NCBI GenBank assembly: GCA_963786635.1
Contig: CAWAZV010000008.1
Location: 234,051 to 298,050 of the forward strand
Length of the DNA stretch: 64,000 nt
Origin: an uncultured beta proteobacterium
GTDB taxonomy: Bacteria > Pseudomonadota > Gammaproteobacteria > Burkholderiales > Usitatibacteraceae
Reading direction: 5' to 3'
In this document: piece by piece, positions 5,130 through 42,854 of the stretch
How positions within the stretch are numbered: the first letter of the stretch is position 1
Layout: every line of letters begins with the position of its first letter
The notes under the pieces: generated by a model
Database searches by the model: none
Told to the model about the DNA's origin: nothing
What the model saw: only the letters and a program-made list of their open reading frames with translations
Position numbers and translations under genes: made by a program

Positions 5130-6633
5130 CCGCCCGCGTTCCGCGCTGCAGCCACCGTTCCGCAACCTCGAACGAAACGTGGACGAGGAGCGCCATCGCC
5201 GCCGCAGGCAGGGCGCCGGCGATGAGCAAGGTGTGGTCGTTCACCGCCAGGCCCTGCACGATGCGCTCGCCGAATCCTCCGGCGCCCACGAATGCCGCGA
5301 TGGTGGCGGTGCCCACGTTCATCACGGCCGAGGTCTTCACGCCGGCCATGATGGTCGGCGCCGCGAGCGGCAACTCGATGCGCCACAGTGCTCTGTTGCG
5401 CGGTGAGCCCCAGCGCGAGGGCCGCCTGCCGCAGGCCCGCCGACACGCCCTCGAGGCCCGCGTGCGTGTTGCGCGCGATCGGCAGCAGCGCATAGAGGAA
5501 GAGGGCGATGAGCGCCGGCCACGCACCGATGCCGGTGAGCGGGATGAGGAAGGCGAGGAGCGCCAGCGACGGGATCGTCTGCAGGAGTCCCGCGGTCGCC
5601 AGCAGCGGCTGCGTGAGCAGGCGCACGCGCGCCGCGGCGATGCCCATCGGCACTCCCGCCGCCACGGCGGCGGCGAGCGAGGCGAACACCAGCGTCGCAT
5701 GCTCGACGGCGAGACGCCCGAAGTCGGGCGCGAACACCGCCGACCACAGGCTGCGCGGCGCGGTATCGGCCTTCGCACCCAGGAACTCGCCCGCGACGGC
5801 CGCGAACGCGACCCGGTCGAGTTCCGCGCGACCGTTGAGGCGGATCATCGTCGCCTCGTCGATGCGGCCCTGCAGCCCGGCCCAGGCGGCGAAGGCCTGC
5901 GGATGGCGCTTCGGCAGGTCCTGGCGGTGCAGCACCACGGCGTCGTAGCGCGGGAAGAAGCTGCGGTCGTCGGCCAGCACCCGCACGCCGAGCCGGGCGA
6001 TCTTCGCGTCGGTGGTGTAGATGTCGATCACCTCGACCTGGCCCGCCGCCAGGGCCTCGTAGGCGATGCCGTGGTCGAGCCCGCGCGGGTCCGCCTGCGG
6101 CAGGCCATACGCCGTGCGCAATCCGGGCCATCCGTCCGCGCGGCGCAGGAATTCGTGCGAGAGGCCCAGCGCGACCTGCGCGTGGCGCGCGAGATCGGAG
6201 ACGGTGGCGATGCCGCGCGCCGCGCAACGCTTTCGCGCATGCCCAGGGCGTAGCCGTTCGAGAATCCGAGGGGAATGCTGGCCGCCAGGCCCAGCGGCGC
6301 CAGGCGCCGGTTGAGCGTGGCGAGATCCGCGGGGCCGCCGTCCTTGAGGATTTCGCGCGCGATCGTGCCGGTGTATTCGGGGTAGGCGTCGATGGCCCCG
6401 CGCCTGAGCGCCTCGTAGAGGATGGCGGTGTTGCCCATGCCCGGCAGGTGCTCGGCCTGCGTCCCGGCGCCGCGCGCGGACTGCGCGAGGATCTCGCCCA
6501 GGATGTAGGACTCCGTGAAGCGCTTCGAGCCCACGCGCAGCGGCTCCGCAGCCGTCGCAGCCGGCATGGCGATGCAGAGTGCGGCAAGGAGAGCGCCCGT
6601 GCGCAGGCGAACCGGGTTCATCGGCCGCAGCAT
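5098..6633 (-). CDS. fused substrate-binding/permease component of a glycine-betaine/choline-type (OpuAC-family) ABC transporter; needs at least 2 frame corrections
   Basis: The signal peptide and SBP part (EPLRVGSKRFTESYILGEILAQ...GMGNTAILYEALRRGAIDAYPEYTGTI) are followed by a permease part (LLQTIPSLALLAFLIPLTGIG...ELPLAAPTIMAGVKTSAVMNVGTATIAAFVGAGGFG). The protein is spread over three ORF-track frames (6028..7794 tail, 4802..6121, 5098..5778). Confidence 0.7.
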
Positions 6634-14889: not shown

Positions 14890-16356
14890 TCAGGGCGCAC
14901 GCACCTCCAGCACCGCCATCATTCCGGCGTCTTCGTGCTCGAGAATGTGGCAGTGGACCATGCGTTTGCCCGGCAGGTCCTGCCGCACAAGGATCGTCGC
15001 GGTGGTCCCCGAAGGAACGTCGACGGTGTCCAGCCATGCCGCGTAGGGCGCCGGCGTGACCCGCCCGCGCGATTCACGGCTCGCCAGCCGGAACTGCGTG
15101 CCATGGATGTGGATCGGGTGGTCCATGAAGGTGTCGTTCACGATCTCCCAGGCCTCGGTGGTCCCGGCGGTGGAGACGAAGTCGACGCGATTCATGTCGA
15201 AGGCGCGGCCGTTGATGAGGAAGCCGCCACCCATCATCCCCATGCCGCCGGATTGCGTCAGCACGACGCGCTTCGTGGCCGTGGGGGCGGCGACGGGCGG
15301 CATCGGCCGCAGTACCGCAGGCAGGTCGACGGGTGTCGCCGGCGCCTCCGCCGTGGTCACGAGCGCAAGGAGATCCTCGTTCCCGTAATCGCCCATCCCC
15401 ATCGTATCGATGGCGTGCCGTGCTGCGCGCAGGGTGTAGCGCGCGCCAGGTGAGGCCGCGACGCGCACCACCACTTCGATACGCTGCGCGGGAGCAACGA
15501 GGACCTCGGAAAGGCCGGGAACCGGCGTTGCAAGCAACCCGCCATCCGTGCCGACCAGCGTGAACGCGTGGCCGTCGAGCTGCAGGCGCAGGTAACGCGC
15601 ACTCGTGGCATTGACGATGCGCCAGCGCTGCGTCGCGCCCGGGCGCACTGCGTGAATGGGCACCCGCCCGCCGTTCACCAACAGCTGCTCGCCCTGGCGT
15701 CCCACCATGAGATCCATCGGGCCGCTCCCGGAAACCTGCGCGGCAGCGTCGAGGCGAATGCCGGTGACCAGCAGGGTCACTTCCGGGATATGGGCAAGAG
15801 GATCGGCTGCGGAACGCACGATGAAGGGCGCGGCGAGCCCCTTCGCCACCTGTTCCGCCGTCGTCTGGTGCGCATGCGGGTGGTACCAGTAGGTGCCCGC
15901 AGTCCCTGCGGGAATGTCGAACTCGACCACGCGCGAGGCACCCGGCCGCACCGGGTCCATCGGATTGCCGTCCTGGTCCGCGGGAACCGGCAACCCGTGC
16001 CAATGGACCGTCGTGTCGATGGGAAGCCGGTTCTCGAGCGCGATGCGCACCCGGTCGCCCTCGCGCACATCCACGAGCGGGCCCGGAAAGAGCCCGTTGT
16101 AGAGCCACAGCGCGGTCGAGCGACCCTCGAGCAGCGCCACGCTCGCCGGCGCGGCCGCAAGGGAAGCGGAAAACAGCCCCGCAGCCGGGTTCGCATTCGC
16201 CAGCAAGGACAGCGGCCGCAAGGGCGATCCCTGCGCAAGGGCAGTTCCGGGCGCGGGCGGCGGCCCCATCATCGCGCCGCTTCCGCCACCGCCGCACGCG
16301 GGCAGGAACGACCCCATGCCCGCCAGTGCCGCACCGAAAAACTCGCGTCTCTTCAT
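14890..16356 (-). CDS. Tat-exported multicopper oxidase (CueO/CopA-like)
   Basis: The 488-aa intact ORF has a twin-arginine leader (MKRREFF) and the copper sites HWHGLPV, YWYHPHAH, HPIHIHG and HCHILEHEDAGMM. Confidence 0.9.
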   Translation of the reverse strand: MKRREFFGAALAGMGSFLPACGGGGSGAMMGPPPAPGTALAQGSPLRPLSLLANANPAAGLFSASLAAAPASVALLEGRSTALWLYNGLFPGPLVDVREGDRVRIALENRLPIDTTVHWHGLPVPADQDGNPMDPVRPGASRVVEFDIPAGTAGTYWYHPHAHQTTAEQVAKGLAAPFIVRSAADPLAHIPEVTLLVTGIRLDAAAQVSGSGPMDLMVGRQGEQLLVNGGRVPIHAVRPGATQRWRIVNATSARYLRLQLDGHAFTLVGTDGGLLATPVPGLSEVLVAPAQRIEVVVRVAASPGARYTLRAARHAIDTMGMGDYGNEDLLALVTTAEAPATPVDLPAVLRPMPPVAAPTATKRVVLTQSGGMGMMGGGFLINGRAFDMNRVDFVSTAGTTEAWEIVNDTFMDHPIHIHGTQFRLASRESRGRVTPAPYAAWLDTVDVPSGTTATILVRQDLPGKRMVHCHILEHEDAGMMAVLEVRAP

Positions 16357-16387
16357 GGCAACTCCCTTGCGGGGAAGGGCTCGTGCC

Positions 16388-16719
16388 CTACTTCACTTTC
16401 TGGATCGCGGTCACGACGTAGTCCCCGTCGGCCTGCACGACCTGGAACCTCACCTTGTCGCCGGCGGCGATGTTGTCGAGGAGCGCCGGCGGCTTCACCG
16501 TGAACGCCATCGTCATCGGCCCCATGTTCACGCTCCTGATCTCGCCATGCTTGATGATGACCTTGCCGGCGGCCTTGTCGACCTTCCTCACTTCGCCGTC
16601 GGCAAGGTCCTTCGCGGCGACTTTCGCGGCAGGGGCCGCGGCCGGCGCGGCTGCGCGTGCTGGGCGAGGGCAACCGCCGCGAAAGTGGAGAGCAGAACGG
16701 TGAATGCAATTCGCTTCAT
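16388..16719 (-). CDS. cusF: periplasmic Cu(I)/Ag(I) chaperone CusF-like; one frame correction near 16655
   Basis: The signal peptide MKRIAFTVLLSTFAAVALAQHA is in one frame. The mature part, ...KVAAKDLADGEVRKVDKAAGKVIIKHGEIRSVNMGPMTMAF...VTAIQKVK, is in the frame of ORF 16388..21541. Length is 332 nt (2 mod 3). Confidence 0.75.
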
Positions 16720-16752
16720 CTTGAAAACTCCTGTTGGTGGTGAAGGAAAAAT

Positions 16753-19700
16753 CTAGCGGCCCGCCGCCTGCGCGAGCCGGCGTGCCTCGCGCTTGCGCAT
16801 GAGAAGCCACGCGGCGGGCACGATGAGCATGGAAATGAGCGGGGCGGTGACCATGCCGCCCACCATCGGCGCGGCGATGCGGCTCATGATCTCGGAACCG
16901 GTGCCGGTATCCCAGAGGATGGGCGTGAGGCCGATCACGGTGGTCGCGACCGTCATCGCCTTGGGCCGCACGCGCAGCACTGCACCTTCGCGGATCGCCT
17001 CGACCAGCGTCGTCTCGTCGGCGCGGCCCGCCGCGATGCGCGCCTCCCACGCCTGCTTGAGGTAGACCAGCATCACGATGCCGAATTCCGCCGTGACTCC
17101 CGCCAGGCCGATGAAGCCGACCGCGGTCGCGATCGAGACCTCGTGCCCGAGCGCGTAGAGGAGCCACACCCCGCCGATGAGCGAGAAGGGGAGTGTCGCC
17201 ATGATGAGCAGCGCCTCGTCCATGCGCCGGAAGGTGAGGTAGAGCATCACGAGGATGATCATGAGCATCGCCGGCACCACGACGGCGAGGCGCTTCTGGG
17301 CGCGCTCGAGGTACTCGAACTGGCCGCTCCAGGCGATGGAGTAGCCCGGCGGCAGCGTCACCTCGCGTCCCACGACGTCCTGCATCTCGTGCACCACCGA
17401 GCGCAGGTCGCGGCCGCGGATGTCCACGTACACCCACCCCGAGGGCCGGGCATTCTCGCTGCGGATCATGGGCGCGCCGTCCGTCACCAGCACGCTCGCC
17501 ACGTCGGAGAGCCGGATCTGCGCGCCGCGTTCGGTGAGGACCGGGAGGTTGCGGAGTCCCTCGAGCGAATCGCGCATCTCGCGCGGGTAGCGCACGTTGA
17601 TCGGGAAACGCTGCAGGCCCTCGATCGTCTCGCCGACGTTCTCGCCGCCGATCGCGGCGGAAACGAGCGACTGCACGTCCGCGACGTTGAGCCCGTAGCG
17701 CGCGGCGCGGTCGCGGTCGATGGCGATGTCGATGTAACGCCCGCCGGTGAGCCGCTCGGCGAGTGCCGAGCTCACGCCCGGCAGGTTCTTCACCGCGCGC
17801 TCGACTTCGCCGGCGATGCGCTCGATCTCGATGAGGCTCTCGCCGGAGACCTTGATGCCGATCGGGCTCTTGATGCCGGTGGCGAGCATGTCGATGCGGT
17901 TGCGGATCGGCGGCACCCAGATGTTGGCCAGGCCCGGCACCTTCACCGTGCGGTCGAGTTCCTCGACGATCTTCTCGGTGGTCATCCCGGGCCGCCACTG
18001 GTCCCGCGGCTTGAACTGGATCGTCGTCTCGAACATCTCCAAGGGCGCGGGGTCGGTCGCGGTTTCGGCGCGGCCCGCCTTGCCGAAGACGCGCGCCACT
18101 TCCGGCACGCTCTTGATGAGGCGGTCGGTCTGCTGCAGCAGCTCCGCGGCCTTGCCCGCGGACAGGCCCGGCAGCGCCGACGGCATGTAGAGCAGGTCGC
18201 CCTCGTCCAGGGGCGGCATGAACTCCCCGCCAAGACGCGATATGGGCCAGGCCGTGGCCGCGGCGGCCACGATGGCGATGGCGATGGAGGCCACCGGCCG
18301 CCGGATCACGATTTCCAGCACCGGCCGGTAGATGGCGATGAGGAAGCGGTTGACCGGGTTGGCATCCTCCCGCGGGATGCGCCCGCGGATGAAGTAGCCC
18401 ATGAGCACCGGCACCAGCGTGACCGCGAGCGCGGCGGCGGCGGCCATCGCGTAGGTCTTCGTGAACGCGAGCGGCGAGAAGAGGCGGCCTTCCTGCGCCT
18501 GCAGGGCGAACACCGGAATGAAGGAGATGGTGACGATGAGGAGCGAGGAGAAGAGCGCCGGGCCCACCTCCACGGAGGCTTCCCCGATCAACTTCCAGCG
18601 CTCGTCGCCCTCGATCTCGCGGCCCGGGTTGGCGGCCTGCCAGGCCTCCAGCTTGCGGTGCGCGTTCTCCACCATCACGACCGCCGCGTCCACCATCTCG
18701 CCGATGGCGATGGCGATGCCGCCCAGCGAGACGATGTTGGCCGTGATGCCCTGGTAGTGCATGACGATGAAGGCCGTGGTGATCCCCAGCGGCAGCGAGA
18801 TGATCGACACGAACGCCGAGCGCCAGTGGAAGAGGAACACGATGCAGATGATCGCCACGACGGCGAACTGCTCGACGAGCGTGGCGCCGACGGTGGCCAC
18901 CGAGCGCTTGATGAGGTCGGAGCGGTCGTAGACCGGCACGATCTCCACGCCGGGCGGGAGGCTGCGCTTGAGGCTTTCGAGCTTCGCCTTCACCAGGTCG
19001 ATGGTCTCGAGGGCGTTCTTGCCGGAGCGCATCACGATGATGCCGCCGGCCACCTCGCCCTCGCCGTCCAGCTCCGAGATGCCGCGGCGCATCTCCGGGC
19101 CGATCTGGATGCGCGACACGTCGGCGAGGCGCACGGAAACGCCGGCCTCCGTGGTCATGAGCGGGATGCGCCGGAAGTCGTCGAGCGTCTTCAGGTAGCC
19201 GCTCGAGCGCACCATGTATTCGGCCTCGCCCAGCTCGAGCACGGAGCCGCCCGCTTCCTGGTTGGCGCGCTGGATCGCCTCCACCACCTTCGCGTGCGGG
19301 ATGTTCAAGGCGCGCAGGCGGTCGGGGTCGAGCACGATCTGGTACTGGCGCACCATGCCGCCCACGCTCGCCACCTCGGCGACGTTGGGCACGCTCTTCA
19401 GCTCGAACTTGAGGAGCCAGTCCTGGATCGCGCGCATCTGCGCGAGGTCCGTCTTGCCGGTGCGGTCGACCAACGCGTACTGGTAGATCCAGCCCACGCC
19501 GGTGGCGTCCGGCCCGAGGGCCGCGCGCGCGCCCGGCGGCAGCCGCCCCTGCACCTGGTTCAGGTACTCGAGCACGCGCGAGCGCGCCCAGTAGAGGTCG
19601 GTGCCGTCCTCGAAGATGATGTAGACGAAGGAGTCGCCGAAGAACGAGAACCCGCGCACGACCTTGGCACCCGGCACCGACATCATCGTCGTGGTGAGCG

Positions 19701-32083: not shown

Positions 32084-33230
32084 TCACGCCTTCAGGTCGG
32101 CGTTCGCGCTCATCGACCGCAGCCGCTGCGCGAAGGCGTAGCGGGCCATCAACCGCCGGTCCAGGAGGATGCGGGCGACGCAATCCACGACGATCATCAC
32201 GACGCCCGCGAGGGGCAGGACGATGATGAGCCCCAGCACGCCGGCGACGGCGCCGCCGATGAACAGCAGCAGCACCGACACCAGCGGATGCATCTGCAGG
32301 CTGCGGCCGATGGTGAGCGGCACGAACACGAAGTCGTCGAGGAGGCGCACCAGCAGGAAGAGCGCGATGGCCGCATAGACCGTGCCCGGGCCGCCGGCCC
32401 CGTCCGCCACGGTGACCAGGACCACGATGATGCAGCCGATGATGGAGCCGACGATGGGAATCCATCCCAGCACGGCCGCCAGCAGCGCGAGGGCCATGGC
32501 GCTGGGGATGCCCAGCACGGCCAGGCCAACGCCCAGGCACGCCGTGTCGATGAGGGTGAGGTACAGCAGGCCCTGGAAGTAGGACCGCGCCATCGTGTCG
32601 ACCCGGTCCACCAGGTGGAGCGTGCGCTCGAAGAACGCGTTCGGCACGGCGCGGATGAGCCGGTTGACGAAGCGGCGCCCGTCCCGGAGGAAGAAGAACG
32701 CGAGGAACGGCGCCAGCAGCAGCGAAGGCACCCACGCGGCCGCGCCGATGAGCGCGCCGGTCACGTGTTCCTTGACGAACCGCTGTCCCAGCTCCGAGGC
32801 CTTGCGGGGAAACGCGTTCTGCAGGTCCCACTGCGCCATGAAGCCGAACCGGGCCTCCAGTCTCGCCCAGCACGCGGCCGACGAGGCCCTTGCCGCTCTC
32901 GACGTAGTTCCAGAACGCCACCTCCCCGCTCGCGCTGTTGGCGACGACCCACGCCGAGAAGGGGACCATCACGAGCACGGCGGCAACCGAGAACAGGCCC
33001 GACACGACGGCCGCGGCCGACTCGTGCGACATGCCCGCGCGGGACAGGTAACGCACGGCCGGGAAGAGGATGTAGTACAGCACGATGGCGAGGAGGAACG
33101 GCACGACGAGCCAGAGCGCGTGCTGCAGGGAAACCAGCAGCAGCGTCGTGAGGCCGAACGTGGCCAGCCAGGTGAGCGGGCCCGCGGAGCCCACGTCCGA
33201 GGGCGCTGCCTCGCGGTTGCGAGGGCTCAC
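32084..33230 (-). CDS. AI-2E family transporter (PerM/YhhT/TqsA-like permease); one frame correction near 32865
   Basis: The N-terminus is in the frame of ORF 31812..33230 (…LWLVVPFLLAIVLYYILFPAVRYL…). The remainder is ORF 32084..32839 (…LLAAVLGWIPIVGSIIG…). Its GTG start overlaps the stop of the upstream cNMP gene (GTGA at 33227-33230). Length is 1147 nt. Confidence 0.8.
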
Positions 33231-33704
33231 AGCGGCAGTTCCGAGACTACCCCGGTCTGCTCGCGCAATTGCCGCGCCAGCTGGCGGGCGATCTGCAGCG
33301 TGATCTTCAGCGCGATCGCCTTGTGGGACTCGGCGAGGCCGTCGAAGTCACGCCGGGAGAGCGTCTGCAGAAGGCATTCCTGCGCGGCGCGCGCCTGCGC
33401 CGACCGCGGGTAGCCCCCGAGGATGGCGAGCTCGCCGAATGCGCTCCCCGGGCCGATCTCGGCGATTTTCCCGGTCTCCGGCTCGCCCTGCCGGCAGATC
33501 AGCACCTTGCCGGAGATCACGACGTAGAGCGCCTGCGAGTCCTCGCCCTGGTCGAAGATGACCTCGCCCTGCTCGTAGCGGCGCTCGTGCAGCAGGCCGG
33601 CGACCACGCGATGTTCCTTCGCATCGAGGGCCGAGAACAGCGAGACGTGCGCCAGGCCGTTGCGGGCCGCGCGAGTCCTTCCTTTGCCGGGTCAGGGGAA
33701 ACAT
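33227..33704 (-). CDS. stand-alone cyclic-nucleotide-binding (CAP effector domain) protein; one frame correction near 33660
   Basis: MFPLTRQRKDSR is in one frame. The rest, ARNGLAHVSLFSALDAKEHRVVAGLLHERRYEQGEVIFDQGE...YVVISGKV...GPGSAFGELAILGGYPRSAQARA, is in another and contains the phosphate-binding cassette GE...RSA. Length is 478 nt. Confidence 0.7.
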
Positions 33705-33949: not shown

Positions 33950-35220
33950 GTGAATCAGGGGGACGGGCAGGCGACAGGTGCCGGCGGGCTGACGGCCTGC
34001 AAGGAGTGCGACCTGCTGCACCGCATCGCGCCGCTCGCGCCCGGGGGCAAGGCGCTGTGCACCCGATGTGCGTCGCCACTGTATCGCCACGTGCCCGACA
34101 GTCTCGACCGTGCGTGCGCGCTCTACCTTGCCGCGTTGATGCTTTGGGTGATGGCGAACGCATTTCCGTTCGTTTCCCTCAAGTTGAGCGGGCGTGTCGA
34201 GGACAACGTGATGCTGTCGGGCCCGCTTGCGCTGGCGCGCGAGGGGATGCCCGAGCTGGGTCTTCTGGTGTTCCTGACCAGCATCCTGTTTCCGCTCGCG
34301 ACCATCGCCGGTTCGCTCTACGTGCTGCTGCCCCTGCGCTTCGGCTGGCGCTTCCCCGGCGCCGCGCCGGTCTACCGCGTGGTCCGGCTGCTGGACCCCT
34401 GGAGCCTCGTCGGCGTGTTCATGCTGGGCCTGCTGGTGCGATCGTGAAGCTGCTGGACCTCGCCGACGTGGTGCCGGGCACCGGGCTGTATGCCTTCGCC
34501 GGCTTGCTGCTCGCGACCGCCGCAGCGAACGCGAACCTGGACCACGGGGCGATCTGGCCGCGCGTCGGTCCGCTGCCTGCGGGACCTGGCCCGGTGCCGG
34601 CGGCCACGGCAGCCGCGCTCGGCCTGACGGGCTGCCCCACCTGCGAACTGCTGGTGCCGGCCGCGCCGCCGGGCGGCCGCGCGCACTGTCCGCGCTGCGG
34701 CAGCCCGGTCCACGGCCTGCGCCAGCCCGACAGCATCGCGCGCACCTGGGCGCTGCTCGTTTCCGCGGCGCTGCTGCTGATCCCGGCCAACCTGTATCCG
34801 GTGATGACGGTGATCCGGTTCGGCCAGGGCGAGCCGAACACCATCCTGAGCGGCGTGATGCACCTGATCGATTCCGGCATGTGGCCGCTGGCGATGCTGG
34901 TGTTCTTCGCCAGCTTCGTGGTGCCGCTCACCAAGATCGCGGTGCTGGTCCTGCTGCTGGTGACGGTGCACCGGGATCTGCCTGGCGCCGGCGCGACCGT
35001 ACCTTGCTCTACCGCGTCACCGAGGTGGTGGGCGCCTGGTCGATGGTCGACATCTTTCTCGTCGGCATCCTGGTCGCGCTGGTGAACCTCGGCGCGCTGG
35101 CGACCGTGCGCCCGGGCGTCGGCGCGATCTTCTTCGGCGGCCGCGGTGGTGCTCACCATGCTCGCGGCCATGAGCTTCGATCCGCGCCTGATCTGGGACC
35201 GCGCGGAGCGCCCGCGATGA
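33950..35220 (+). CDS. pqiA: paraquat-inducible protein A (PqiA, duplicated zinc-ribbon membrane protein); three frame corrections (near 34440, 34985, 35138)
   Basis: It has two CxxC...CxxC modules (CKECDLL...CTRC and CPTCELL...CPRCGS) with PqiA-type TM blocks. The corrected C-terminus is AAVVLTMLAAMSFDPRLIWDRAERPR followed by the stop. The start (GTG at 33950) is uncertain. Confidence 0.75.
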
Positions 35221-36906
35221 GCGAGGCGCACGACACCCGGGACAGCGGCGCCGCCCGAGCCGGTGCTGCGCCGGCGCTCGGGGCCGTCGCTGGTCTGGCT
35301 GATCCCGCTGCTCACCGCGCTGATCGGCGGCTGGCTGATCTACAAGACGATTTCGGAGAAGGGTCCTGCGCTCAGCATCAGCTTCATGCACGCCGAGGGC
35401 ATCGAGGTCGGCAAGACGCGCATCAAGTACAAGAACCTGGACATCGGCGTGGTGGAAGGGCTGCGTTTCAGCGACGATTTCGCGCGCGTGGTGGTGCTGG
35501 CGCGGCTCAACAAGGAGGCGGCGCCGTTCCTGAAGCGCGGCACGCGCTTCTGGGTGGTCAAGCCGAGCCTCGGGCTGCGCGGCGTTTCGGGCCTGAGTAC
35601 CCTGATCTCGGGCGCCTTCATCGAGATCGAGCCCGGCCAGGGCGCGACAGAGACGAATTTCATCGGCCTCGAGGTGCCGCCGGTGGTCGCCGCGAGCGCG
35701 GCCGGGCGCAGGATCGAGCTGGTGACCACGCGGCTCGGCTCGATCGACCGGGGTTCGCCGCTCTACTACCAGGGGATCCTCGCCGGCGAGGTGCTGGGCT
35801 ACGAGATGGCCGACGACTACCGCAGCGTGCTGGTGCACGCCTTCGTCAAGGAGCCCTTCGACCGGCTGCTGCGTTCGAGCACGCGCTTCTGGCACGCCAG
35901 CGGAGTCGAAGTGGCGCTCGGCGCCGACGGCCTGCGCGTGCAGACCGAGTCCATCCAGGCCATGCTGTTCGGCGGCATCGCCTTCGACACGCCCGATGCG
36001 CAGGACGGCGCGAGCGAGAACACCGACGGGCTGGTGTTCACGCTGTTCGACGACCGGCGCTCGGTCCAGGACCGCGCCTATACGAGCAAGGCCAGGTTCG
36101 TGCTCCATTTCGGCGAATCGGTGCGCGGCCTGGCGGTCGGGGCGCCGGTGGAATTCAAGGGAATCAAGATCGGCGCGGTAACCGGAATCCGGCTCGAGTA
36201 CGAGCCGAAGAGCGGGACATTCCTGATCCCGGTGGTGATCGAAATCGAGCCCGAGCGCGTCCTCGAGCGTTCACCGGCGCGCGGCGAAGGCCTGCGGGCA
36301 GCGCCGCAGGCGACCCTCCAGGCGCTCGTCAAGCGCGGCCTGCGTGCGCGCCTGCAGACCGGCAACCTTCTCACCGGACAATTGTTCGTCGAGCTCGACA
36401 TGCATCCGAAGTCGAAGATCCGGCTGGTGCAGGCCGCCGGGCCGTATCCCGAGCTGCCGACCATCCCGGGAAGCATCGGGCAGATGACGGTATCGGTCGA
36501 GAGCATCCTCGCCAAGCTCGACCGCATCGATCTCGAGGCCATCGGCACGGATCTGCAAGGCACGCTCGCCGGCACCAGCAAGCTGGCCAATCAACCGGAA
36601 TTGCAGCGCTCGATCGCCGATCTGTCGGCCTCGCTCGCCAGCCTGCGCAGCATCCTGCACAAGGTGGACCAGCACGCCGAGCCGATCGCCGCGAACCTGG
36701 ACAAGGCGCTCGTTTCGGCGCGCGAAACGCTGACGCTGCTCGACGGTGTGCTCGCACCCGACTCGCCGTTGCACGAACGCAGCTTGCGTCTTGCCGAGGA
36801 GCTGCGCGAGGCCGCTCGCTCGATCCGCGCACTGGTGGACATCCTGCAGCGCGATCCGCAATCCGTGATGTTCGGCAGGAAGGCTCCACCGGAGAGGACC
36901 CAGTGA
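35217..36906 (+). CDS. pqiB: MCE-domain protein PqiB (intermembrane transport); a possible frame correction near 35255, or alternatively a GTG start at 35263
   Basis: ORF 35263..36906 has an N-terminal TM (SLVWLIPLLTALIGGWLIY) followed by three MCE repeats (e.g. GKTRIKYKNLDIGVVEGL, GSPLYYQGILAGEVLGY, GAPVEFKGIKIGAVTGI). The ATG at 35217 overlaps the pqiA stop (ATGA). Confidence 0.85.
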
Positions 36907-37514
36907 TGCACAAGTTCGCCATTGCCGCTTTTGCGGCCGCACTTGCCGTGGCCCTCGCGACGGGTTGCTCCTCCCTGCCGCCGGTGCGGTTCTATGTCGT
37001 CACGCCGCTCGCGGGTCCGGCGCCGGCCACGCGGGCGCCCGGCCCTGGCGTCGTGGTCGCCGCCGTGCGCCTGCCCGAGTACCTCGAACGCCCGCAACTG
37101 GTCACGCGCAGCGGCGACAACCGGCTGCAGCTGGAGGAGTTCCACCAGTGGGGCGGGAACCTGGGCAAGGACCTGACGCGCGTGCTGGCGGAGAACCTTT
37201 CCCTGCTGCTCGGCAGCGACGCGGTGGTCGCGGCGCCGCATGCGCTGCGCATGCGGCCGGATTACCGCGTGGAACTCGAGGTGCTGCGGTTCGAGCGCGC
37301 CGGCGATGCGCGGGTGCACCTGACGGCCAAGTGGTGGCTTCAGCGCGGCGCGGGCGGCTCGCCGCTGGCCAGCCCCACGACCACGCTGGCCAGCGAGCCG
37401 CTGGCCGAGGCGGCGAGTGCGGAGCTCACGGTCGCGGCGATGAGCGGCGTCTACGGCGAACTTTCGCGTGTCATCGCGCAGGCGATCACGCGCCAGGAGA
37501 TGGCGGCGCGATGA
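36906..37514 (+). CDS. pqiC: lipoprotein PqiC/YmbA (ABC-type transport auxiliary lipoprotein family)
   Basis: An inner ATG overlaps the pqiB stop (TGATG). The lipobox is LATGCSS, followed by VRLPEYLERPQLVTRSGDNRLQLEEFHQWGGNL, which is typical of this family. Confidence 0.8.
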   Translation: MHKFAIAAFAAALAVALATGCSSLPPVRFYVVTPLAGPAPATRAPGPGVVVAAVRLPEYLERPQLVTRSGDNRLQLEEFHQWGGNLGKDLTRVLAENLSLLLGSDAVVAAPHALRMRPDYRVELEVLRFERAGDARVHLTAKWWLQRGAGGSPLASPTTTLASEPLAEAASAELTVAAMSGVYGELSRVIAQAITRQEMAAR

Positions 37515-38345
37515 GCGGAGCGATCGCGAGCACTGGCTGCACTGGCGGTACTTTGCCTGGTTCCGGTTGCGGCGCTCGCTGCGCCGAGCGCCTCCGAAAT
37601 CATCGACGGGGTGCGCTCGAACCGTCCGCAGGCCTGCTGCATCTACCAGGAGCTGACCATGATCCTGTCGGATCCCGCGGGCGAAGGCGGGGTGCGGAGA
37701 ATCCGCTGGTTCGAACGCCATGAGCCGGACGGCGGCAGCCGGTTGCTCCTCGTGTTCGTCGCGCCGGCCGATGTGCGCGGCGCCGCCATACTGGTGACGC
37801 GCGACCCGTCCGGCGCCACGCGGGGCGAGGTCCACCTGCCGGCGCTCGGCAGGCCGCTCGACCTGGTCGCCAGGACTGCGGGCGCGATGCCGCTGGTTGG
37901 CAGCGACTTCAAGCTTGCCGACCTGTTCAGGGGGGCGCCGCGCGATTTCACCTACGAGCGCGAAGCCGACGCGGAGATCGACCGCAGCGTGCACTACGTC
38001 ATACGCGCCACACCGGTCAAGGGCGCGGAGCAGCGCACCGGGGGAGGTCCGCGCCGCCACTACGTGCGCAAGGGCGACTATTTTCTCGTGCGCACGGAAT
38101 TTCATGACGTGCGGGGCGTGCTGGCGCGCCGCCAGAGCTTCCGCGACGCCAGGCAGGTCGAGCCCGGCGTCTGGCAGGCCGACATGATCCTGATGGAAGA
38201 CTTCGGCGAGCGGCACCGCACGCTGCTCAAGGTCGAGCGACGCGTCTTCTCGCCCGATTACGCCCCGGCCGAAATCTTCTCCCGGCAGTGGCTGGCCGAG
38301 GGGCGCCACCTGCTCATCGGCGGCGACGCGCCGTTCGGGCCCTAG
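37511..38345 (+). CDS. LolA-like outer-membrane lipoprotein-sorting-type periplasmic protein; one frame correction near 37530
   Basis: The ATG overlaps the pqiC stop (ATGA at 37511-37514). After correction the signal peptide reads [28 protein letters not shown]. Then come LLVFVAPADVRGAAILV, HLPALGRPLDLV and GSDFKLADL, resembling the LolA_like family that usually accompanies MMPL exporters. Length is 835 nt. Confidence 0.65.
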
Positions 38346-38360
38346 GAAGGGGCGCGCGAC

Positions 38361-41094
38361 ATGCTGCAGAAACTGCTCCTGGCCGGTGTCGAACGCCGCT
38401 ACGCCCTGGTCCTGTGCCTGCTGGCGCTCACCGTGCTGGCGGCATTGGGCGTGCCCAAGGTACGGATCGACACCGGCTTCGACCGGTTGATCCTGGAGAA
38501 GAGCGCCGACCGGCAGACCTACCAGCGGGTGACGCGCGAGTTCGGCTCGGACAACCAGACGATCGTCTACGTGCGCGACGCCGCGCTGTGGACGCCCGAG
38601 AAGCTGGCGGTGCTCGAGCGCCTGCACCGCACGCTCGGGGCGCTGCCTGCGGTGGAGCGCATCGACGACCTCTATACGCAGCGCAGCCTGCGCAGTATCG
38701 ACGGCAGGGTGGCCGCCGGCCCGCTGCTCTCCGGCGTGCCGGCGGACGCCGAGGCGGCTGCGAGCGCCCGCCGCAATGCGCTTGCCGATCCGCTGGCACT
38801 GCGCAACCTGATCTCGGCCGACGGCAACGCGGTAGCGCTGACGGTCTCGCTGCGCGAGCGCGCCGACACCGAGGCGGACCGCACCGCCTACTACGCCATC
38901 GAACAGGCGCTTGCGCCAGCGCGTGACACGTTCGCCGAAGTGTTCCAGGTCGGACCGCCGCGCATCGGCGTCGAACTCGAGCGCAGCCTGCTGCACGACC
39001 TGAAGGTGCTGCTGCCGGTGTCCGCGGTGCTGCTGGTCCTTGCCGTGCTCGCGATCTCCCGCAGCCTGTTTGCGGCACTGGTGCCGCTGGCGACCGCCGG
39101 GTTGAGCCTGCTGTGGACGCTGGGAATGCTCGGTCATGCCGGCATTCCGCTCGGCATCCTGAGCGCGATCCTGCCCTCGCTGGTGGTGGCGATCGGTGCG
39201 ACCGGGAGCCTGTACTTGATGGAAGGCTACTTCAAGGGGCTCGCCGCTTCGGCAGACGGGGGGCGCGCCGCCGCCACCCGGTACCTGGTGACGCATCTCG
39301 GCGCGTCGGCAATCCTCACGGTGGCCACTACCGCAATCGGCTTCGCAGCCAACGCCTTCATCGGCATCGCGCTGATCCGGGACTTCGTGGCCGCCGCCAC
39401 GTTCGCCATCCTGGCCAATGGCGCCGTCACGCTGCTGCTGGTGCCGCTGCTGCTGGCGCTCGCCGGGCCGCGGCGCATGCCGCGCTGCGCAAGGCGCCGA
39501 CGAGGCAAATCCGGTGGCCGGCATCGCCTTGCAGGCGCTCGGCCTGATGCGCGGGCGCCTGGTCTTCTACGTGCTCGCACTTGCGGCGGCGCTGGTCGTG
39601 GCGTTCATCTACCAGGTGGAGCGGTTCCACGTGACGAACGATCCGCTGACCTACTTTCACGCCGATCGCGCGCTGGCGCTCGACGCGAGGCGCGTCCAGC
39701 ACGACCTGGCCGGGGTGAAGGTGTTCTACATCACGCTCGAGTCCGGCAACGAGCGCGCATTCCAGGACCCGCCAAACCTGCAGAAGCTCGTGGATATCCA
39801 GGCCTTCGTCGCCAAGCAGGGCGTCTTCGATCGCAGCCTGTCGCTTGCGGACAAGCTCTCGCTCGTGAACCGCGAGCTGAACGACGGCCGTCCCGAGGCC
39901 TACCGTGTGCCGGCGACGCGCAAGCTGGTGGCGCAAAGCCTGCTGTTCTTCCAGCGGCGCGACCTCGAGCCGTACGTCAGCCAGGATTTCCGGCGCGCGA
40001 ACATCGTGGTGCGCCACGACGTCAAGGACTCGACCACGCTGAACAACCATGTCGAGGAACTGCGCCAGGTCGTGCGCCACATCGCGGGGCCCGACATGGC
40101 CGGCGCGGTGACGGGGGAGAACCTGATGGTCAATGCCGCGGCCGATCGCCTGCTCAGGGGCCAGGTCGAGGCGATCTCGATCCTGGTGACGGCGATCTTC
40201 CTCGCGATGTCGCTGATGTTCACCTCGTTCAAGGGCGGGCTGATCGCGCTGGTGCCGAGCATCCTGCCGATCGCGCTGATGTTCTTCTCGATGGTGCTGC
40301 TGGACATCCCGTTGAACGCCGGCACCGTGATGGTGGCGACCATCGCCATCGGCATCGCGATCGACGGCACCATCCGCCTGTTCCTGCGCTACAACGCGCG
40401 GTGCCGCAGGACCTCGAACAACGACGCGGCGATGCTCGAGACCGTAAGGGAGGAGGCCAGGCCGGTGGTCGCGGCGAGCCTCGCGCTGGCGATCGGCTTC
40501 GGCGTGCTGCTGCTGTCGGACCTCACGATCGTGGCGCAGTTCGGCGCACTTGCGGCCTGCACCATCCTGTTTTCGACATTCACCAACCTGCTGGTCACGC
40601 CGATGGTGATGTCGCGCATCCGGCTGGTCGGCCTGTACCAGATCCTCGCCATGTCGGTGCAGCGCCAGGTACTCGACGACAGCCCGCTGTTCCAGGGCAT
40701 GACGTCATACCAGGTGCGCAAGGCGATCCTGATCTCGGAGTTGCACGAGGTCGCCGCGGGGACGCGGCTCATCGAGCAGGGCACGATGGGCAGCAGCATG
40801 TACCTGGTGGTGAGCGGCGAGCTGGAGGTGGTGCGCCGCGACGACGCAAGCGAGCACAGGCTGGCGCTGCTCAAGCCCGGGGACGTGCTCGGCGAGATCG
40901 GGTTCATCCGCGCCACGCGCCGCACCGCCGACGTGCGCGCGCTGGGACCGGTTTCGGTCCTGCGCTTCGACCGCGACAAGCTCGCGAACGACCTGCGCTT
41001 CTTCCCCAGGATCGTCGCCAAGCTCAACTTCAACATCAGCTGCATTCTTGGCCAGCGGCTCGCCGAACTGGTCGAATCCGGCGCGCCCGAGTAG
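38361..41094 (+). CDS. MMPL/RND-superfamily exporter (two 6-TM bundles) fused to a C-terminal cyclic-nucleotide-binding domain; one frame correction near 39480
   Basis: The first half is ORF 38361..41336 up to LLLALAGP. The second half is ORF 39418..41094. The last ~150 aa read SPLFQGMTSYQVRKAILISELHEVAAGTRLIEQGTMGSSMYLVVSGELEVV...PGDVLGEIGFIRATRRTADVRA, a CAP_ED fold with a GE...RTA cassette. Length is 2734 nt. Confidence 0.75.
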
Positions 41095-41098
41095 CCGG

Positions 41099-41902
41099 TC
41101 AGCAACCCCGGGGGCCGGGAAACCTGGCTTCACGAAGGAGCTCCGCGAGAACCGCGCCGTACTCGGCGCAGGCGGCGACCTCCTCGGGTTCGACGTGCGC
41201 GGTCGGCCAGGTCAGCGCGAGTCCCCGCGCATCCCACAGGAATGCCGCCCGGCCGTGGTGCCCCTCGAGCAGCCAGTCGCGGACCGACGGCGAGAGACGC
41301 TGGAGCAGCCCCTGCGGTTTGCCGAACGCCGTGTAGGCGAGACCGAAGGCATCGGCAGGAAGCGGCAGGTGGTCTTCCGGCGTGATCGACAGGGAATCGG
41401 CGCGGTCATTGCCGAAATTGAGCCTGACATACGCCTGGCCCGCCGCCCAGGCCGCCTTGGCCACCAGCCCGCCGAGAAAGCCGCTGCCGCGATTGGCCTT
41501 GGCCGCCTGCGGGTGCACACCTTCGGGAAGCGCCATCAGCAACAGCTCACCGCCGCCAGTTCCGGCCTCGGGTGCGGTCCACCGGGTGTAGCGAGTCGAG
41601 CCATTGCGACGGGTGGCAAGTCCGTCGCCAACCTCCGACGTGAGCATCGTCACCTCGGCATGCCACGGCACGCCCCGCGTGGTGCCGCTGAAACGGTGCG
41701 TGCCGGGTATGACACCCTGATTGGTGTCAAGGCCGCCCGGCGCGGTGTAGGCCATGCCATGCTGCCGCGCCTCTTCCGTGTTGCGCGCGACAAGCGCCTC
41801 ACGACGCCCGCTCGCGCCGCGCCGCAGGAGATAGCCGCCGAAAAGCGCGAACAGGACCAGGGGCCAGTATTCGCGCAGCAACACCATCAGCGTGTACTCC
41901 AT
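41099..41902 (-). CDS. hypothetical membrane-anchored protein (267 aa), no recognisable domain
   Basis: An intact ORF with an N-terminal TM (WPLVLFALFGGYLL). It follows the OmpA-like gene on the same strand. I do not recognise the family. Confidence 0.45.
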   Translation of the reverse strand: MEYTLMVLLREYWPLVLFALFGGYLLRRGASGRREALVARNTEEARQHGMAYTAPGGLDTNQGVIPGTHRFSGTTRGVPWHAEVTMLTSEVGDGLATRRNGSTRYTRWTAPEAGTGGGELLLMALPEGVHPQAAKANRGSGFLGGLVAKAAWAAGQAYVRLNFGNDRADSLSITPEDHLPLPADAFGLAYTAFGKPQGLLQRLSPSVRDWLLEGHHGRAAFLWDARGLALTWPTAHVEPEEVAACAEYGAVLAELLREARFPGPRGC

Positions 41903-41950
41903 CGCCTCACTCCCTTCCCGCCCCGGCCGGCAAGCGCCACCGGCAGGGCA

Positions 41951-42854
41951 TCAACGAAGCACCATCTCCACGCGCCGATTCTTCGCGCGCCCGGCCTCGT
42001 CCGCATTGCTGGCTACCGGCGCGAACGGCCCCACGCCCTCGGCGACCGAGGCGATCCTTCGCAATGCCGTGCTGGCCCGGCAGCGCCGCCACGACACTCG
42101 CCGCGCGATCGCGCGAGAGCTTCAGGTTGTGGTCGGCGGCGCCCTGCATGTCGGTGTGGCCGATGATGTACACCTTGCTGCCTGCGTTCGCCTTCAGCCA
42201 CTTGGCCATCTCCGCCAGCGTCGGGCCGGACTCGGGCTTGATGGTGGCCTTGTCGGTGTCGAAGTAGATGCCGTAGAAGACGACCTTGCCGCCCGTGCCG
42301 ATGTCCTTGGCGATCTGGTCGGCCGACAGCACGATCGTCTGCTCCATCGCCTTGACGCGCACGATCTTGTGCATGATGGCGCTGCACACCTTGCTGTCGC
42401 CGCGCCCGCAGCCGACGCTGCCCCAGTACTCGGCGCCGCCCTTCTCGATCCGGTAGTGGATGGACTTGCCGTTCGACGGCGTGGAGAGCACGGTGCCGCC
42501 GCCCTTCTGGAGGGCCGCCAGGAAGTTGCGCTGCAGTTCGAGAGGGGAGGGGTGCGACCCGGAAGCATCCCTGTCGATTTCGTCGAAGTAGTACCAGTAC
42601 TCCCCCTCCTTCTTGACCGTCGCGAAGTTGCTATCGAGCTTCGCGGGGTCCCTGGCCGCCTCGAGTTCCAGCTCCAGGAAGCGCGAGCGCTCGCAGCCGG
42701 AAAGGAAGGCGCCGGGAAACCTCTCGAACACCGGGTTGGGCTGGCACTTCGCGTTGTCCTTCGACTTCGCCTTTTGCGCGGCGGCATCGGTGGCGGCGAA
42801 CGCGAACAGCGCCGCGAAGGCGCCGGCAAGCACGAGTCGGACAGGGGCTTTCAT
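41951..42854 (-). CDS. OmpA-family (peptidoglycan-binding) protein with an unassigned N-terminal domain; one frame correction near 42048
   Basis: It has a signal peptide, then a Cys-containing N-domain, then FDTDKATIKPESGPTLAEMAKWLKANAGSKVYIIGHTDMQGAADHNLKLSRDRAASV. The corrected tail is VAEGVGPFAPVASNADEAGRAKNRRVEMVLR followed by the stop. Length is 904 nt. Confidence 0.75.

Follow-up and report, generated by a model that had tools for sequence, protein, structure and literature searches.

RND transporters of the MMPL and HAE3 types, cytoplasmic cyclic-nucleotide-binding (CNB) domains and the PqiABC lipid bridge are each familiar from described systems, and relatives of all three occur in one locus of an uncultured betaproteobacterium of the family Usitatibacteraceae. 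The locus lies within a stretch of 64,000 nucleotides (nt; hereafter the window; assembly GCA_963786635.1, contig CAWAZV010000008.1, positions 234,051 to 298,050 of the forward strand), and its last gene, at 38361-41094 of the window, encodes an MMPL/RND transporter with a C-terminal CNB domain (MMPL::CNB). The closest described RND proteins are HpnN and the HAE3 subfamily (TIGR00921; PDB 5khn, 6wu0), with which the product shares the organization into 12 transmembrane (TM) helices, two periplasmic domains and a presumed lipid-type substrate. The mycobacterial exporters of lipids and siderophores MmpL3, MmpL4 and MmpL5 (PDB 9gi0, 9syj, 9u51, 6ajg) are its best structural matches. Export by these MmpL proteins is driven by protons, and partner binding involves their cytoplasmic face or tail; however, they are only 13-16% identical to the protein considered here, their partners are MmpS and AcpM instead of LolA-like or Pqi proteins, and they have no cyclic-nucleotide domain. 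The PqiABC system of E. coli, a trans-envelope lipid bridge of the MCE family, is matched in the window by pqiA, pqiB and pqiC genes of canonical sizes and families (PF04403, PF02470, PF03886), but here these three genes form one series with a LolA-like gene and that of a CNB-bearing RND pump. The E. coli pqi operon is not known to contain such extra genes.

On the regulatory side, the C-terminal cytoplasmic CNB domain, its cassette and a conserved linker to the membrane protein recall SthK-type channels and PKG/PKA-R; unlike in SthK, the membrane part in the window is a secondary-active RND transporter and not a tetrameric channel. Among the HAE3 systems that have been studied, the nearest one with a periplasmic partner of the LolA superfamily is AmeABCD of Castellaniella defragrans, a betaproteobacterial HAE3-type RND pump for the export of hydrophobic compounds; in contrast to the present locus, AmeB is of the DUF1329 type and not of PF17131, a DUF1302 outer-membrane protein stands in the place of PqiABC, and AmeD (787 amino acids, aa) has no CNB domain (PMC6394551). 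A 2023 review of post-translational transporter control describes CNB fusions only for the MFS, and names as RND regulators only the small proteins AcrZ, YajC and WatS1 (PMC10710835). In those MFS-CNB fusions, the same plug-in regulatory domain is carried by a secondary transporter of a different superfamily (PMC10710835). In full-text searches of the literature, we found no description of an RND/MMPL protein with a cyclic-nucleotide domain, nor of Pqi genes linked to an MMPL pump. The constituent parts are all of known kinds; in combination, they appear in databases only in the form of a domain architecture without a name.

We consider, with a probability of roughly 0.6, that the locus encodes one 910-aa MMPL/HAE3-like transporter of the lipid-type RND branch, which bears a cytoplasmic CNB domain, is split in this assembly by a spurious T at 39486, is the fifth gene of a conserved operon, and would place lipid traffic under modulation by cyclic nucleotides (cNMP). 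The interval 38361-41094 comprises 2734 nt, a length not divisible by three, and contains two overlapping open reading frames (ORFs) on the plus strand; the single ORF that had been read here in the initial annotation is therefore not borne out. ORF 1 (38361-41336, 991 aa) reads as a plausible membrane protein until ...LLLVPLLLALAGPRR and as GC-rich nonsense beyond, and ORF 2 (39418-41094, 558 aa) is nonsense at first and reads as a plausible protein from ...AAQGADEANPVAGIALQ onward. The initiating ATG at 38361 and the stop codon that ends at 41094 agree with the termini of intact orthologs of 910-917 aa. By tblastn with one of these, the 917-aa ortholog P0002 (86% identical), residues 1-372 were found in one frame up to approximately 39476, and residues 374-912 in another frame from 39481. 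A homology-free hidden Markov model (HMM) of GC content by codon position, which in coding parts of the window is approximately 69%, 45% and 91% at the first, second and third positions, respectively, placed the frame switch at 39488.

In a DNA alignment with five relatives (L001, L005, L006, L007 and L029; L001 shares 93.5% DNA identity with the gene in the window), the T at 39486, in the context CCGCGC-T-GCGCAAGG, is the only column that is filled in the window alone. Without this base, the sequence reads ...GPRRMPRAQGADEANPVAG... and yields a product of 910 aa, equal in length to other members of the family, e.g., P0003 and P0009. The two-frame appearance of the transporter gene is thus due to a single extra T. 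In the protein, this position falls into the cytoplasmic TM6-TM7 loop, where both conservation and model confidence are at their lowest; residues 374-396 of the ortholog model have a predicted local distance difference test (pLDDT) score below 50. The upstream frame remains free of stop codons past 39486 up to 41336, and the gene caller on this genome reported only a 526-aa product of the C-terminal half (P0001). Both peptide strings quoted in the initial annotation (LLVTPMVMSRIRLVGLYQILAMS and GEIGFIRATRRTADVRA) are present in the sequence, and the tail is indeed in frame with the second TM bundle: past the last TM helix, this frame stays open for approximately 149 aa.

Both halves of the membrane part exceed the Pfam cut-off of 20.5 bits for MMPL (PF03176), with 59.8 bits for the N-terminal half and 61.8 bits for the C-terminal half, and the first 370 aa also match the Pfam Sterol-sensing family at 25 bits. 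The nearest named subfamily is HAE3 (NCBIfam TIGR00921, cut-off 351.9), for which P0002 scores 173.7 bits and the C-terminal half in the window 84.9 bits, both below the threshold for membership. A structural model was calculated with AlphaFold2 for P0002 with 80 homologs, and not for the frame-broken product of the window. The model (mean pLDDT 82.6, predicted template-modelling score 0.77) has the helices to be expected of such a protein, a pair of alpha/beta domains on the periplasmic side and, at the C-terminus, a beta-roll flanked by helices. In a Foldseek search of the PDB with this model, MmpL4, MmpL5 and MmpL3 were the top matches (E approximately 1e-23, target template-modelling scores of 0.70-0.75), followed by NPC1L1, Patched, NCR1 and HpnN; by sequence, the MmpL structure 9gi0 was the best PDB match of the membrane part (E 1.4e-10). 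The 12-TM fold with two periplasmic domains of the solved MmpL and HpnN structures is therefore reproduced in the ortholog model, and by this modelled fold the protein is a member of the lipid-moving RND branch and not of the AcrB-type drug pumps. TM10 bears an acidic residue (D or E) in 77 of the 80 homologs, with D in the window. The MMPL/RND exporter of the initial annotation stands as regards family membership, by both Pfam and fold; its lipid-type character, the pqiABC-LolA-like operon and the frame break had been missed. A separate candidate, an HpnN or hopanoid identity, was rejected: TIGR03480 gave 89.6 bits (cut-off 751.85) and NF052374 gave 26.5 bits (cut-off 1100), the curated cut-offs being far from reached, the locus is without hopanoid genes, and its partners are pqiABC and a LolA-like gene.

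The tail had been proposed to be a cNMP-binding domain with a canonical phosphate-binding cassette, and a profile search of it gave a clear answer: Pfam cNMP_binding (PF00027, cut-off 27.5) matched at 68.6 bits (E 4.8e-19), covering residues 443-523 of the 558-aa ORF and profile positions 2-83 of 89. A PDB sequence search with the tail retrieved the CNB domains of PKG, PKA-R, SthK and CRP, with E values down to 4e-14. The cassette GEIGFIRATRRTADV contains the Gly-Glu and Arg-Thr/Ser-Ala residues, as had been noted for Glu and Arg-Thr-Ala; 80 homologs of 51-89% identity show no variation at its residues G844, E845, G847, R854, T855, A856 and V858 (P0002 numbering). The same holds for R754, L755 and L758 in the linker that follows TM12. 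In the ortholog model, the C-terminus of the 12-TM protein, to which the tail is attached, is predicted to lie on the cytoplasmic side. No structure joining an RND protein and a CNB domain was present among the PDB sequence and Foldseek matches, and neither the matched RND structures, HpnN included, nor the NCBIfam models have a cytoplasmic CNB domain.

As judged from the sequence, the domain fusion is real, and direct second-messenger gating is put forward as a hypothesis; from the domain architecture, direct cNMP control of envelope lipid transport can reasonably be inferred. The invariant Arg-Thr-Ala does not decide between cAMP and cGMP as the probable ligand. It could be argued that the tail has the CNB fold and senses neither nucleotide, and that it serves another ligand, dimerisation or the docking of a partner, as in some domains of the CRP/FNR family. 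Nucleotide specificity cannot be read from sequence, the cassette residues 847-851 are the least confident part of the domain model (pLDDT below 50), and cyclase genes are seldom adjacent, all of which would be compatible with such a role. On the other hand, the Gly-Glu and Arg-Thr-Ala residues, which in known CNB domains bind the ribose and the cyclic phosphate, are invariant across the homologs and are usually absent from CNB-fold domains with other ligands. In addition, the best sequence matches are true cNMP binders, and the genome is rich in class III cyclases; a tail of this kind that does not sense cAMP or cGMP is therefore regarded as unlikely.

The genome (3.57 Mb) contains 11 matches to class III cyclase domains and 30 to the cNMP_binding profile, which is a dense cyclic-nucleotide signalling set for its size. 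A class III cyclase gene stands directly downstream of MMPL::CNB in two loci (L010:7481-8542 and L018:10597-12012, both on the plus strand) and close downstream in a third (L013:12486-13865, plus strand). In L010 and L013, the cyclase has an FHA domain as well. One MMPL::CNB relative, P0135 (1075 aa), has the architecture FHA-MMPL-CNB with an N-terminal FHA domain according to Pfam; FHA thus appears twice around this family.

The initial annotation had suggested a survey of MMPL proteins for this architecture, and the fusion turned out to be common in public data and not peculiar to this genome. A word-indexed database search gave 710 matches; among the matches listed, all 120 carry PF03176 and PF00027, most are 905-947 aa long, and the names given are "MMPL family transporter", "efflux RND transporter permease subunit" and, once, "RND exporter/CRP-like cAMP-binding protein". 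In a scan of one genome per GTDB species, a relative was present in 217 genomes, a count that is biased to CNB-bearing members because the search patterns were taken from the cassette and the linker. The 80 best of these 217 span the full 917 aa and belong to the Burkholderiales and other Betaproteobacteria, Gammaproteobacteria, Desulfobacterales, Nitrospinota and Magnetococcales; 79 of the 80 loci come from metagenome-assembled genomes (MAGs) and one from a single-cell genome. A HMMER search of 1.84 billion cluster representatives with the second membrane half only (400 aa, without the CNB domain) returned 914 clusters at E <=1e-30. Taking the best 150 of these clusters, a CNB domain follows the pump in 99 of the 122 representatives of at least 740 aa. 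In a FastTree phylogeny of the pump cores, which is unrooted and quick, the CNB-less rows are scattered among the CNB-bearing ones and 17 changes are needed, a pattern that fits a possibly old CNB fusion with repeated loss or truncated gene calls. Of 393 good genomes sampled evenly from the phylum, approximately 15 contain a CNB-bearing ortholog (46-52% identity in most of them, 33% in one); the next-best MMPL proteins reach at most 28% identity and end at residue 750. Further domains may be added to the fusion: about ten representatives (1015-1068 aa) have approximately 150 aa past the CNB domain, a region that holds GGDEF in P0192 (1055 aa), an MMPL-CNB-GGDEF protein, and that gave no Pfam match in P0175 and P0204.

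The transporter gene is the last of five genes on the same strand, in the order pqiA, pqiB, pqiC, LolA-like and MMPL::CNB. The adjacent and co-oriented genes for PqiA, an MCE-domain PqiB and a PqiC lipoprotein identify a PqiABC-type MCE system. The ATG of the LolA-like gene overlaps the stop codon of pqiC (ATGA at 37511), and its frame is broken just past the start; in L002, successive genes overlap by 4-11 nt, and the same five-gene order is found in close relatives. When 57 loci with at least 4.7 kb of upstream sequence were surveyed, all four upstream genes were co-stranded with the pump gene in 49, and PqiA and PqiB were present in 56, in Beta- and Gammaproteobacteria, Desulfobacterales and Nitrospinota and at pump identities down to approximately 50%. 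PqiC is missing in five loci, the Pqi genes are missing in L073, and pqiAB is on the opposite strand in L039. In a Burkholderiales subclade with 62-64% pump identity (L009, L011, L012, L015 and L020), the order is pqiA, pqiB, lolA-like and pump, with no room for pqiC between pqiB and the lolA-like gene. A search of the genome for PqiA found the operon locus alone; in the control search of 14 reference genomes, PqiA was present in E. coli alone.

The CNB-less MMPL proteins of the phylum sample (at most 28% identity) keep a LolA-like neighbour, and PqiC was not seen near them within 1.5-kb flanks. Based on this, the pump and its LolA-like partner look like the older unit, and the CNB-bearing clade appears to be tied to PqiABC. 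The same observation could mean that the pump and PqiABC are mere neighbours, and that the MMPL::CNB and LolA-like pair works alone, like the CNB-less pairs with no Pqi gene in their flanks, while pqiABC is independent; the pair without pqi genes in L073, the opposite strand of pqiAB in L039 and the five loci without pqiC would be in line with this. However, gene order and strand are constant in the 49 loci, which represent several phyla or classes; successive genes are joined by overlapping start and stop codons, and the operon is the sole PqiA locus found in the genome. Mere neighbourhood is thus considered improbable, and we retain the pump as the fifth gene of a conserved operon.

With regard to its origin, the frame break at 39486 is most likely an assembly indel, as judged from its sequence context, because six homology-verified frame breaks fall within approximately 9 kb (approximately three in pqiA and one each in the LolA-like gene, the AI-2E permease gene and the transporter gene) and approximately 22 model candidates occur in the 64 kb. 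The latter come from the model of GC content at third codon positions (GC3), which found approximately 22 same-strand frame switches that are not accompanied by a stop of the upstream frame within 100 nt; there may be a few false positives among them, and one, at 42054, is probably a true gene boundary. The indel load of the assembly therefore seems to be approximately 1 per 3 kb in the window, and at this density any claim of a single ORF or of a pseudogene in the window needs read support. The source genome is a MAG of 14 contigs with 85% completeness. In L001, whose contig name is of long-read style, the same gene has four other private indels and is called as pieces of 286 and 471 aa; in L002-L004, with k141-style (MEGAHIT) contig names, the gene is intact at 917 aa.

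Alternatively, the break could be real and mark a recent pseudogene or expression in two pieces, i.e., the N-terminal half with a long out-of-frame tail and the C-terminal half with the CNB domain from an internal GTG at 39514. The extra T is present in the given sequence and is not within a homopolymer, the gene caller reported the 526-aa product of the C-terminal half, and most species of the genus do without the five-gene module. Nevertheless, at least five further homology-verified breaks lie in the adjoining 9 kb, besides the candidates elsewhere in the same assembly, and the 2.7 kb of the gene are without another lesion and show a strong GC3 coding signal through both halves. Moreover, the absence of a stop in the upstream frame for 1.85 kb means that a tidy two-gene split is not encoded, and the relative with the long-read style contig name has different private indels, whereas the k141-style contigs have none. 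A real break is accordingly considered quite improbable. The ratio of nonsynonymous to synonymous substitution rates between the window and L005, L006 and L029 was 0.25-0.66, with 4.5 for L029, and is regarded as uninformative because a GC3 of approximately 90% compresses the synonymous divergence and L029 contains Ns. A programmed frameshift was ruled out, the extra base being private to this assembly and situated in the least conserved loop.

Several observations weigh against the proposed 910-aa, cNMP-modulated transporter of a conserved operon. The five-gene module is present in only 3 of the 24 genomes of the genus of the window, and this patchiness implies that the module is accessory rather than core. 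The acidic residue of TM4, which is E in 61 of the 80 homologs, is G in the clade of the window. The linker has a pLDDT of 56-66 in the ortholog model, so that the model does not show the CNB domain in contact with the pump. Cyclase genes, searched for with an HMM from Pfam-verified domains, accompany the operon in just 5 of 84 loci, a weak association for which reason no dedicated cyclase is claimed. Finally, the T at 39486 is outside any homopolymer, where long-read indels are commonest. The features of the locus, its neighbours and the candidate frame switches are collected in Table 1.

Table 1. Features of the MMPL::CNB locus, neighbouring genes and candidate frame-switch sites (coordinates of the window)
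Feature	Position	Strand	Basis
pqiA	33995..35240	+	tblastn pieces in frames 2, 1 and 3 (~3 breaks), 69-86% identity to L002; PF04403 in five pieces
pqiB (MCE/MlaD-domain periplasmic bridge protein)	35236..36906	+	tblastn, 82% identity over 552 aa to L002; orthologs PF02470
pqiC-like outer-membrane lipoprotein gene	36906..37514	+	tblastn, 75% identity over 200 aa to L002 PqiC; orthologs PF03886 (ABC_trans_aux)
LolA-like (PF17131, TP_0789-like) periplasmic protein gene	37511..38345	+	Pfam LolA_like 83.3 bits; L002 ortholog aa 3-283 at 37515-38357 (tblastn)
MMPL/RND N-terminal half (TM1-6 and first periplasmic domain)	38361..39485	+	frame of 38361; P0002 aa 1-372 by tblastn, ~80% identity
Extra T shifting the reading frame	39486..39486	+	six-way DNA alignment; GC3 model switch 39488
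Transporter C-terminal half (TM7-12 and second periplasmic domain), closed by the conserved post-TM12 linker SRIRLVGLYQILAMS	39487..40632	+	frame of 39418; P0002 aa 374-912, 86% identity
CNB/CAP_ED domain with cassette GEIGFIRATRRTADV, then stop codon	40633..41094	+	Pfam cNMP_binding; PDB matches
AI-2E family permease gene	32084..33230	-
Stand-alone CNB protein (~158 aa)	33227..33690	-
267-aa ORF	41099..41902	-	no Pfam or NCBIfam match
OmpA-family gene	41907..42854		OmpA domain, 55 bits
Candidate frame-switch sites	near 5388, 6226, 7458, 9530, 19983, 21996, 23887, 27451, 27919, 29847, 30850		GC3 model
Candidate frame-switch sites, continued	31293, 31829, 32860, 34981, 35135, 39488, 47492, 58505, 59663, 63247		GC3 model

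Among the neighbours, the stand-alone CNB protein gene is followed by the AI-2E permease gene, and this pair is divergent from pqiA; the permease gene is frame-broken near 32850. A stand-alone CNB ORF upstream of pqiA is also present in L001, L006, L007 and L029, and not in L002-L005. On the other side, the 267-aa ORF is convergent with the pump gene, with 4 nt between the two stops, and the OmpA-family gene lies upstream of this ORF. In L001, the closest relative, 6 kb downstream of the pump (15301-17384), there are genes for a STAS protein, a HATPase_c_2 anti-sigma-type kinase and a CNB-SpoIIE phosphatase, which form another cyclic-nucleotide-linked module.

A mechanism may be proposed on the basis of the protein families and their order. 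The pump would use the proton-motive force and lift a lipid or another hydrophobic molecule from the inner membrane. The molecule would then be handed to the periplasmic LolA-like carrier, to the tunnel of PqiB, anchored in the outer membrane by PqiC, or to both. cAMP or cGMP, produced by one of some ten class III cyclases in the genome, would bind to the CNB domain and alter the activity of the pump via the post-TM12 linker; either nucleotide is a candidate ligand. Envelope lipid traffic would thereby follow a second messenger post-translationally. It is possible, and we suggest it only tentatively, that the five genes form one machine, in which the RND pump and its LolA-like adaptor load or energise the ATPase-less PqiABC bridge and a cyclic nucleotide switches the flow via the CNB tail.

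The copy in the window is an ordinary member of its family, and the frame break is its only particular feature. That the MMPL::CNB family has scarcely been studied may be due to the origin of its loci, 79 of 80 from MAGs and one from a single-cell genome. RND pumps are known mainly for transcriptional control and for a few small proteins that regulate them, and a built-in cNMP sensor would be a direct and fast control. The constant linkage to pqiABC and the LolA-like gene gives an idea of how an ATPase-less bridge of the Pqi type might be fed or powered, and also of how bacteria might tune outer-membrane lipid traffic to signals. If the five genes do form one machine, it would be the first second-messenger-gated RND transporter and would give a named power source to a Pqi-type MCE bridge.

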